A stretch of 64,000 nt of DNA from an uncultured Bdellovibrionales bacterium (GCA_964436855.1 CAYTED010000001.1:135059-199058), one strand, 5' to 3'. Counted from the stretch's first letter, positions 47,901 to 48,767 are shown. Notes: generated by a model from the letters alone, not told the origin. Numbers and translations are program-made.

Positions 47901-47922
47901 CTCATCTATCAACCAAGAAAAC

Positions 47923-48291
47923 CTAGCATCCGGTTGGGAAAACTGTTCCCACTTCCGAATAGGTTGTCCCGGAGCAGGCTGCGGGAACATCAGCTGTTGG
48001 ACTGATTGTTCCATCAAATGTATCCCCGCCGGCACTACACGTTTCATTGAGCACTGCGTACGAAGAAACCTTGGACCCGGTTGGGACCGATACCGTAGTA
48101 CCATCGATAGCAACACTCTCACTACAAGAATTCACAAGCTGTGGAACGATACTCGCCGCCGTCGACTTAAAAGAAGCGGCTGCCGCTTTCTGACGAGCGC
48201 TTGAGAGTGACACAAGCACGATCGAGGCGAGAATACCGATGATCGCGATAACAATCAAGAGCTCAATAAGGGTAAAGCCTTTTTTGTTCAT
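47923..48291 (-). CDS. pilA: Type IV major pilin, copy 1
   Basis: [25 protein letters not shown] prepilin N-terminus. 122 aa with two C-terminal Cys pairs. Confidence 0.8.
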
Positions 48292-48334
48292 AATATATTA
48301 AATTATTACTTAACTTATCCTCACACAAGAAAAC

Positions 48335-48703
48335 CTAGCATCCGGTTGGGAAAACTGTTCCCACTTCCGAATAGGTTGTCCCGGAGCAGGCTGCGGGAAC
48401 ATCAGCTGTTGGACTGATTGTTCCATCAAATGTATCCCCGCCGGCACTACACGTTTCATTGAGCACTGCGTACGAAGAAACCTTGGACCCGGTTGGGACC
48501 GATACCGTAGTACCATCGATAGCAACACTCTCACTACAAGAATTCACAAGCTGTGGAACGATACTCGCCGCCGTCGACTTAAAAGAAGCGGCTGCCGCTT
48601 TCTGACGAGCGCTTGAGAGTGATACAAGCACGATCGAGGCGAGAATACCGATGATCGCGATAACAATGAGAAGTTCGATTAACGTAAACCCTTTTTTATT
48701 CAT
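48335..48703 (-). CDS. pilA: Type IV major pilin, copy 2 (identical protein; start at the internal Met of the listed ORF)
   Basis: Identical 122-aa product. The DNA is identical over the 3' ~330 nt and differs only synonymously near the 5' end. Confidence 0.8.
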
Positions 48704-48767
48704 ATTCTCACCGCCTTTCTGTTTTAGTTTTTTATTCTTTATTTGAGAATTCAATCTCTCTTCCATT

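Follow-up and report, generated by a model that had tools for sequence, protein, structure and literature searches.

Adjacent type IV pilin genes of a Patescibacteria pilus cluster encode one prepilin and probably share a body copied from one gene to the other

Two type IV pilin genes that stand head to tail in a pilus cluster of a Patescibacteria (CPR) bacterium encode one and the same prepilin, and the distribution of the nucleotide differences between them indicates that non-reciprocal recombination probably overwrote the body of one paralogue with that of the other, leaving two genes for a single prepilin. Both genes are on the minus strand of the 64,000-nucleotide stretch of DNA that was analyzed (the window), to which coordinates refer unless another contig is named. 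Copy B (48335–48703), the first gene after pilC, and copy A (47923–48291), the second, repeat with a period of 412 nt, and each is a 369-nt ORF composed of 366 nt and a TAG stop. The translations, of 122 residues each, are identical.

Base-by-base comparison of the two ORFs revealed 11 differences, all 11 synonymous. Ten of these, at CDS nt 6, 15, 21, 22, 24, 27, 30, 33, 34, and 36, touch 8 of the 11 codons from codon 2 to codon 12, and the remaining one is at CDS nt 81 (codon 27, GTG versus GTA). From CDS nt 82 through nt 369 and for 9 nt past the stop, the copies match exactly, after which they diverge abruptly. Each gene hence has a diverged 5´ block, CDS nt 1–36 (48668–48703 in copy B and 48256–48291 in copy A, minus strand), followed by a homogenized tract of 342 nt, CDS nt 37–369 plus the 9 nt past the stop (48326–48667 in copy B and 47914–48255 in copy A, minus strand), which was delimited by unit alignment, a repeat finder and base comparison and has nt 81 as its one mismatch. 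The shared tract supplies the first 9 nt of the 43-nt spacer between B and A (48292–48334, minus strand); the remainder of the spacer is AT-rich, with no motif resembling a Shine–Dalgarno (SD) sequence near the copy A ATG. Alignment showed the regions 5´ of the two ATGs to be unrelated. An earlier note on this DNA had described identical 122-residue copies with differing upstream regions, and both descriptions hold; the two strings that it quoted are present on the plus strand at about 48256–48282 and 48668–48694. It was also right that the 5´ ends differ synonymously and that identity extends beyond the stop, but the lengths it gave, ~60 nt and ~20 nt, were too large: the measured values are 36 nt, plus the single difference at nt 81, and 9 nt, respectively.

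Codons 2–12 carry 10 differences on 7.0 synonymous sites (pS > 1), while codons 13–122 carry one on 87.7 synonymous sites (pS 0.01) and codons 28–122 none. Under a null that spreads the differences evenly over synonymous sites, 10 or more of the 11 would fall in the 5´ block with a probability of 5e-11. Only 3 of the 11 codons from 2 to 12 are identical between the copies, compared with 4.9 expected for independent draws from the local codon usage. The 5´ blocks are saturated, that is, as unlike as two unrelated sequences for one peptide can be. Together with the 34 nt 5´ of the ATG, these first 36 coding nt bring the unrelated or saturated portion of each 412-nt unit to 70 nt. Because synonymous sites in the body are identical as well, purifying selection or protein-level constraint alone is ruled out as the cause of the identity there.

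Both copies are type IV pilins, T4a-like and with a class III signal peptide. The prepilin starts MNKK-GFTLIELL, with a short basic leader, Gly at −1, Phe at +1, Glu at +5, and a hydrophobic α1-N segment, and it matches the Pfam family N_methyl (PF07963) above the cut-off (E=8e-10). Its sequence matches in the PDB are PilA proteins or major pilins, including 9laa PilA (E=7e-6, residues 3–112), Geobacter PilA, and PAK pilin. Modeled with AlphaFold2 from 42 homologues (pLDDT 91), the protein has the lollipop shape of the pilin fold, in which a long N-terminal helix (residues 8–57) is joined to an antiparallel β-sheet (strands 75–86, 89–98, 109–112, and 115–117). The best three Foldseek matches of this model in the PDB are all pilins, but weak ones (E 0.15–0.57). 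A C-terminal Gly...Cys-stop motif is invariant in the 42 homologues. Gly, Ala, Ser, and Thr make up 47% of the mature pilin versus 24–26% of PilB, PilT, and PilC; a high bias toward these four residues served as a mark of major pilins in a study of Saccharibacteria (PMC11623550). This bias, the small size of the protein, the position of the genes as the first after pilC, and the SD-like motif of copy B are indirect indications that the copies are candidates for the major, filament-forming subunit.

The exact protein occurs in the public collection as P0001 (122 aa) and P0121 (143 aa), both from one NCBI contig of 203,564 nt. The longer entry arises because the NCBI record starts copy B at an upstream in-frame ATG, with the extension lying in 48704–48766 (minus strand). 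The orthologous extension in the closest relative (L167, PilC 91% identical) is broken by an in-frame TAA, and the SD-like sequence GGCGGTGAG (48707–48715, minus strand) lies 4–12 nt before the ATG at 48703; for these two reasons the 122-residue start is preferred for copy B, and the 143-residue call is probably a start-codon miscall. Its effect is to mask the identity of the two pilin products.

The neighbors of the twin genes constitute a complete type IV pilus cluster. The assembly genes are all on the minus strand between 44649 and 56100 and all have Pfam matches: pilM (55027–56100), pilN (54303–54947), pilO (53458–54282), pilB (51672–53441), pilT (49997–51082), pilC (48768–49976; T2SSF platform protein, T2SSF E=2e-59), directly upstream of copy B, and the prepilin peptidase gene pilD (44649–45449; A24_N_bact E=5e-32, Peptidase_A24). 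A receiver-only response regulator (51193–51621, minus strand) lies between pilB and pilT, a position that is kept in four other contigs (L083, L084, L169, and L170). Downstream of pilD, also on the minus strand, are a PaaX/Cas2-like gene (43860–44501) encoding a PaaX central (Cas2-like) domain, likewise kept in position in L169, and two further pilin-like ORFs (42062–42610 and 40529–41113). The named homologues of PilC belong to Candidatus Moranbacteria or Moraniibacteriota, and the window is therefore assigned to a Patescibacteria (CPR) MAG. Five clustered tRNA genes (Ala-TGC, Ile-GAT, Met, Met, and Asp; 22752–23741, plus strand) were the only Rfam matches in the 64-kb window, which has no rRNA match and none of any kind at the pilin locus. 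Ala-TGC and Ile-GAT are the usual tRNA pair of rRNA operon spacers.

Directly downstream of copy A, between the terminator-like hairpin that follows it and pilD, is a gene for a GT-C/PMT_2-like polytopic membrane protein (45466–47826, minus strand) of 783–786 residues, 783 if called from 47817, with a weak PMT_2 match (E=6.6e-7). A word-index search with this protein returned only itself at E<=1e-10, and no sequence match was found in the PDB. TfpW of Pseudomonas is a pilin glycosyltransferase, and, judged by its position, the window protein could be a putative pilin glycosyltransferase of a similar kind. At the same place, the syntenic contig L169 has a 118-residue ORF, and L109, described below, has a non-homologous 762-residue ORF; no homology was detectable between the large downstream membrane proteins of the window and L109.

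To what extent the state of the twin genes is unusual is seen by comparison with related clusters. In L169, the PilC of which is 72% identical to that of the window, pilC is followed by pilins of 132 and 159 residues, a small ORF, pilD, and a PaaX-like gene. The pilins of this pair are near-identical at the nucleotide level over a stretch of ~70 nt in the N-terminal helix region, and their globular parts cannot be aligned. Two unlike tandem pilins also follow pilC in L081, where a pilin is 68% identical to that of the window, and in L082, where the values are 61% and 54%. As diverged bodies are usual in this group, the window lineage is derived in having identical ones. Within the genome, copies A and B have 100% protein identity, versus 68% for the best foreign homologue. 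Searches of genome and metagenome contig collections for close relatives of the pilin returned nothing beyond N-terminal matches or 42% overall identity, and in the contig collections no sister strain or species was found that has the exact locus in a pre-conversion state.

These data show the features that gene conversion leaves: divergence that is heterogeneous with a sharp boundary, identity that includes synonymous sites, and paralogues that are closer to one another than the corresponding genes of syntenic relatives. The recent conversion of the variable C-terminal part that the earlier note had put forward is supported by the mosaic of differences and by the diverged bodies of the relatives. 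The Moranbacteria pilus cluster would have contained an older pair of paralogues with only the N-terminal coding segment in common, and one or more non-reciprocal events, presumably of RecA type, would have copied one body over the other. The copied tract would run from about codon 13 through the stop and 9 nt beyond, and its 5´ junction would lie where the conserved N-terminal helix is encoded. Conversion would never have reached the first 36 nt, which would have kept their old, saturated synonymous divergence under strict constraint on the amino acids, namely those of the leader and of the Gly-Phe cleavage site, and Glu5. We infer the one-way transfer and its recent date, like the recombination itself, from this pattern.

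The two ends of the tract differ in the homology that flanks them. The conserved N-terminal block adjoins the 5´ end, while the 3´ side offers just the 9 nt past the stop and the Gly...Cys-stop motif before the flanks become unrelated. A boundary 9 nt past the stop is not readily explained by classical two-ended conversion, and a one-ended event or microhomology must be assumed; the conserved Gly...Cys-stop motif could be the short 3´ homology that anchored the tract end. The outcome would be a doubled template for an abundant filament subunit, from which a dosage benefit might follow, and the loss of one ancestral pilin variant.

How the two genes may be expressed was examined by consensus scans, in which promoters and terminators are predicted from matches to a consensus, and the promoters of this phylum are uncharacterized. 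The σ70-like site TTTACA-17-TAAAAT (10 of 12 positions; 48765–48793, minus strand) overlaps the pilC stop about 61 nt 5´ of the copy B ATG. No promoter-like site or terminator was found in the 43-nt spacer by the same scans, and 21 nt past the copy A stop is a strong hairpin resembling an intrinsic terminator, with the 14-bp stem GCAAAAAGAACGGGATATCCCGTTCTTTTTGT and a T-run (47860–47901, minus strand). A predicted promoter 5´ of B, a spacer free of such signals, and a predicted terminator after A suggest that B and then A would be carried on one transcript, as a single bicistronic unit rather than as two promoter-driven genes. Expression of the same pilin from two promoters, as had been proposed, is not supported by the scans, with one σ70-like site, none in the spacer, and one terminator after A. 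The most likely arrangement would thus be co-transcription from 5´ of B with termination after A. A GC-rich hairpin, AAGCGGCAGCCGCTT, followed by CTTTT and flagged as terminator-like by the scan, is also present inside both CDSs, ~100 nt in (48174–48188 and 48586–48600, minus strand), where it encodes KAAAASFK; it is probably incidental.

Identity confined to the body is not unique to the window. A scan for adjacent pilin-like ORFs in 165 loci yielded 262 pairs, two of which are almost identical in this body-only fashion. In the first (L070, a Planctomycetia MAG, 2583–3400), the stretches compared were 127 codons long, beginning at the Gly-Phe cleavage site and reaching the stop; they share every nucleotide from 15 nt past the Gly codon through the stop, and the leaders differ (MRVLKNKK versus MRMLMNKK). 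In the second (L109, a CPR-like contig, 5362–6438), the identity of the two copies begins 9 nt before the Gly/Ala codon and ends 12 nt short of the stop, and the leaders are quite unlike, that of the first copy being 22 residues long with Ala in place of Gly at −1, so that this copy may not be processed normally. The upstream regions also differ between the copies of both pairs. By ORF length, the gene order of L109 is PilB-sized, PilC-sized, pilin, pilin, large ORF, and PilD-sized. Three other pairs (L150, L067, and L094) show the more familiar mosaic, in which the N-terminal part is identical and the C-terminal part diverged. Tandem pilin genes evidently recombine often, and the window pair is one clean outcome. 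In the literature that was searched, no description was found of tandem pilins that are identical in CPR.

The same observations could be read as the result of a longer process, in which an old duplicate was kept identical by repeated conversion under selection for dosage and the edges that could not be converted eroded, through synonymous changes at the coding 5´ edge and to the point of complete loss in the non-coding flanks. A saturated 5´ edge around an identical center is what such a process would leave, and the body-only identity in the unrelated L070 and L109, with boundaries within about 35 nt of the mature start and stop, is in keeping with it. Concerted evolution is documented for tandem flagellin genes and tuf (PMC6053082), and major pilins are prone to tandem duplication (PMC4858521). 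However, the pilins of the nearest syntenic relatives have very unlike bodies, making the identity derived and lineage-specific, and the 3´ end lacks an eroded coding edge. We therefore consider long maintenance of this kind unlikely, though it is the foremost of the alternatives to a recent overwriting of one body.

The recurrence of homogenized bodies, with leaders and first codons maximally unlike at the nucleotide level, in the window, L070, and L109 also raises the idea that the arrangement itself is selected and not a by-product, which we think doubtful, with a small chance of being correct. Were it so, two mRNA 5´ ends, one SD-bearing and one SD-less and differing in translation or regulation, would yield the same protein; alternatively, the 5´ dissimilarity would be kept to limit RecA-mediated deletion of the duplicate.

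A recent tandem duplication of a single pilin gene, with later replacement of, or selection on, the 5´ end and upstream region of one copy so as to give a new translation-initiation context, is very unlikely. The start contexts do truly differ, as copy B has GGCGGTGAG and copy A an AT-rich leader with no SD-like motif, although such a motif is absent from most other genes of the pilus cluster too. In addition, the 5´ codons of copy A are slightly closer than those of copy B to the pilin-like gene at 42610 (81% over 54 nt). Yet 10 substitutions in 36 nt versus one in 333 nt are unattainable by point mutation after a recent duplication, and two genes are already present at this position in relatives. 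Folding of −40 to +40 constructs with native or swapped leader and 5´-codon blocks gave mean unpaired probabilities, averaged over −15 to +12, of 0.41 (native) versus 0.62 (swapped 5´ block) for the copy A leader and 0.53 versus 0.64 for that of copy B; the native pairings are not less structured than the swapped ones. Duplication followed by selection for different initiation contexts, the second possibility raised in the earlier note, is accordingly not supported as the main cause, with 70 of 412 nt unrelated or saturated and swapped constructs that are no more closed.

Other candidates were set aside. Selection for an open translation start was rejected, as the native leader and 5´-block pairings are not more open than the swapped ones by folding. 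A simple recent tandem duplication, as an amplification unit, would give identity of the whole unit, and 70 of the 412 nt are unrelated or saturated. The third pilin gene (42062–42610) as donor of a 5´ block was also discarded: copy A is slightly closer to it, with no decisive codon pattern. In copy B, codons 11–13 are able to pair with the SD-like motif of the same gene, though in a weak hairpin (MFE −7 kcal/mol).

The assembly of the repeat could be checked independently in the Logan assembly of run SRR12229868 (k=31), the contigs of which were reached through PilC (P0122) and the GT-C protein (P0242). A 13,642-nt Logan contig that extends from pilM to pilC (L166) is identical to the window and stops inside copy B, at CDS nt 66, exactly 30 nt past the last 5´ difference between A and B. 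A second, of 4,315 nt, which carries the GT-C gene, pilD, and the PaaX-like gene (L168), is identical to the window and begins at 47943; it includes exactly the last 30 nt of the shared tract. Thirty is k−1 for k=31, which we take to be the k-mer size of the Logan pipeline. As the contigs break 30 nt inside both tract ends, two 5´ ends enter and two continuations leave one body, and one of these continuations, from the spacer into the start of copy A, requires another pilin gene downstream of the first. The repeat exists at the read level, probably in two or more copies.

A mis-resolved repeat, whether in its copy number, by attachment of the wrong body to the copy B 5´ end, or as a chimera of strains, is thereby rendered highly improbable. 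The locus comes from a single MAG contig with sequence support from one sample, the exact repeat of 297–342 nt exceeds the short-read length, and the contigs of several relatives break within the first pilin. By contrast, the two 5´ ends enter the same 31-mer and two 3´ flanks exit the tract, with the Logan ends at k−1; the junction of spacer and copy A can be obtained only from reads in which a second pilin follows a pilin 3´ end; the difference at nt 81 is within read length of the diverged 5´ blocks; and assembly errors of this type usually collapse repeats and do not expand them. The concern, voiced at the outset, that the repeat is an assembly artefact is thus largely, though not fully, removed by the Logan break points.

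The overwriting of one body by the other has counterparts in several known systems. In the tuf genes, homogenization is by non-reciprocal recombination (gene conversion). The window pair resembles tufA/tufB and tandem flagellin genes in that complete, expressed paralogues are kept or made identical, including at synonymous sites, with differing flanks and a rationale of dosage for a very abundant protein (PMC6053082). Compared with tufA/tufB, the window copies are adjacent, with their 412-nt period, and very short, the tract ends are sharp, at codon 13 on the 5´ side and 9 nt past the stop on the 3´ side, and the diverged bodies of the nearest relatives suggest recent replacement and not long maintenance.

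Tandem pilin paralogues include pilA1/pilA2 of Kingella kingae, pilA1/pilA2 of Synechocystis, and the archaeal PilA families. The window pair shares with tandem major-pilin paralogues the adjoining pilin genes, the common N-terminal segment, and a location beside assembly genes. However, these paralogues, like those of L169, L081, and L082, are most alike in the N-terminal coding part and unlike in their globular domains, while the window pair has identical globular domains and differs in the first 36 nt. The non-reciprocal transfer of a pilin body between loci, with a junction in conserved sequence, recalls Neisseria pilE/pilS. There, the pilS copies are silent, lack a promoter, a start codon, and the N-terminal coding part, and differ from pilE. 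The window copies, by contrast, are complete, with start codon and leader, identical, and adjacent, and the process is one of homogenization, not diversification. No pilS-like silent copies or further pilin bodies were found in the 64-kb window by blastn and tblastn. The suggestion that the identical blocks are a recombination substrate for pilin variation is consequently not upheld, since identical direct repeats alter copy number and not sequence and the window holds no other donors. PilA1 and PilA2 of Saccharibacteria TM7x, likewise small major pilins of CPR, also have a class III signal peptide, are modeled as lollipop-shaped, and are rich in Gly/Ala/Ser/Thr, but, unlike the window pair, they are distinct proteins from separate loci that form two different pili (PMC11623550).

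The window pair adds, from a phylum that has been little studied, an example of a known process in which tandem genes for filament subunits undergo gene conversion or evolve in concert, and no new mechanism is called for. Its conversion-tract boundary is textbook-clean. Contigs of related Moranbacteria end in the N-terminal coding part of the first pilin, at nt 74 in L167, nt 84 in L171, nt 156 in L170, and nt 66 in L166, which suggests that assemblies are routinely broken at segments that pilin genes have in common and that CPR MAGs are credited with fewer pilin copies than they have.

Type IV pili are considered central to host attachment and DNA uptake in CPR/Patescibacteria, and the pilin repertoires of MAGs are used to infer both. 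Where pilin repeats break short-read assemblies exactly at the edges of a tract, the pilin counts of CPR MAGs are probably too low. The locus shows that, in a reduced genome, recombination is able to erase one pilin variant and double the gene of another.
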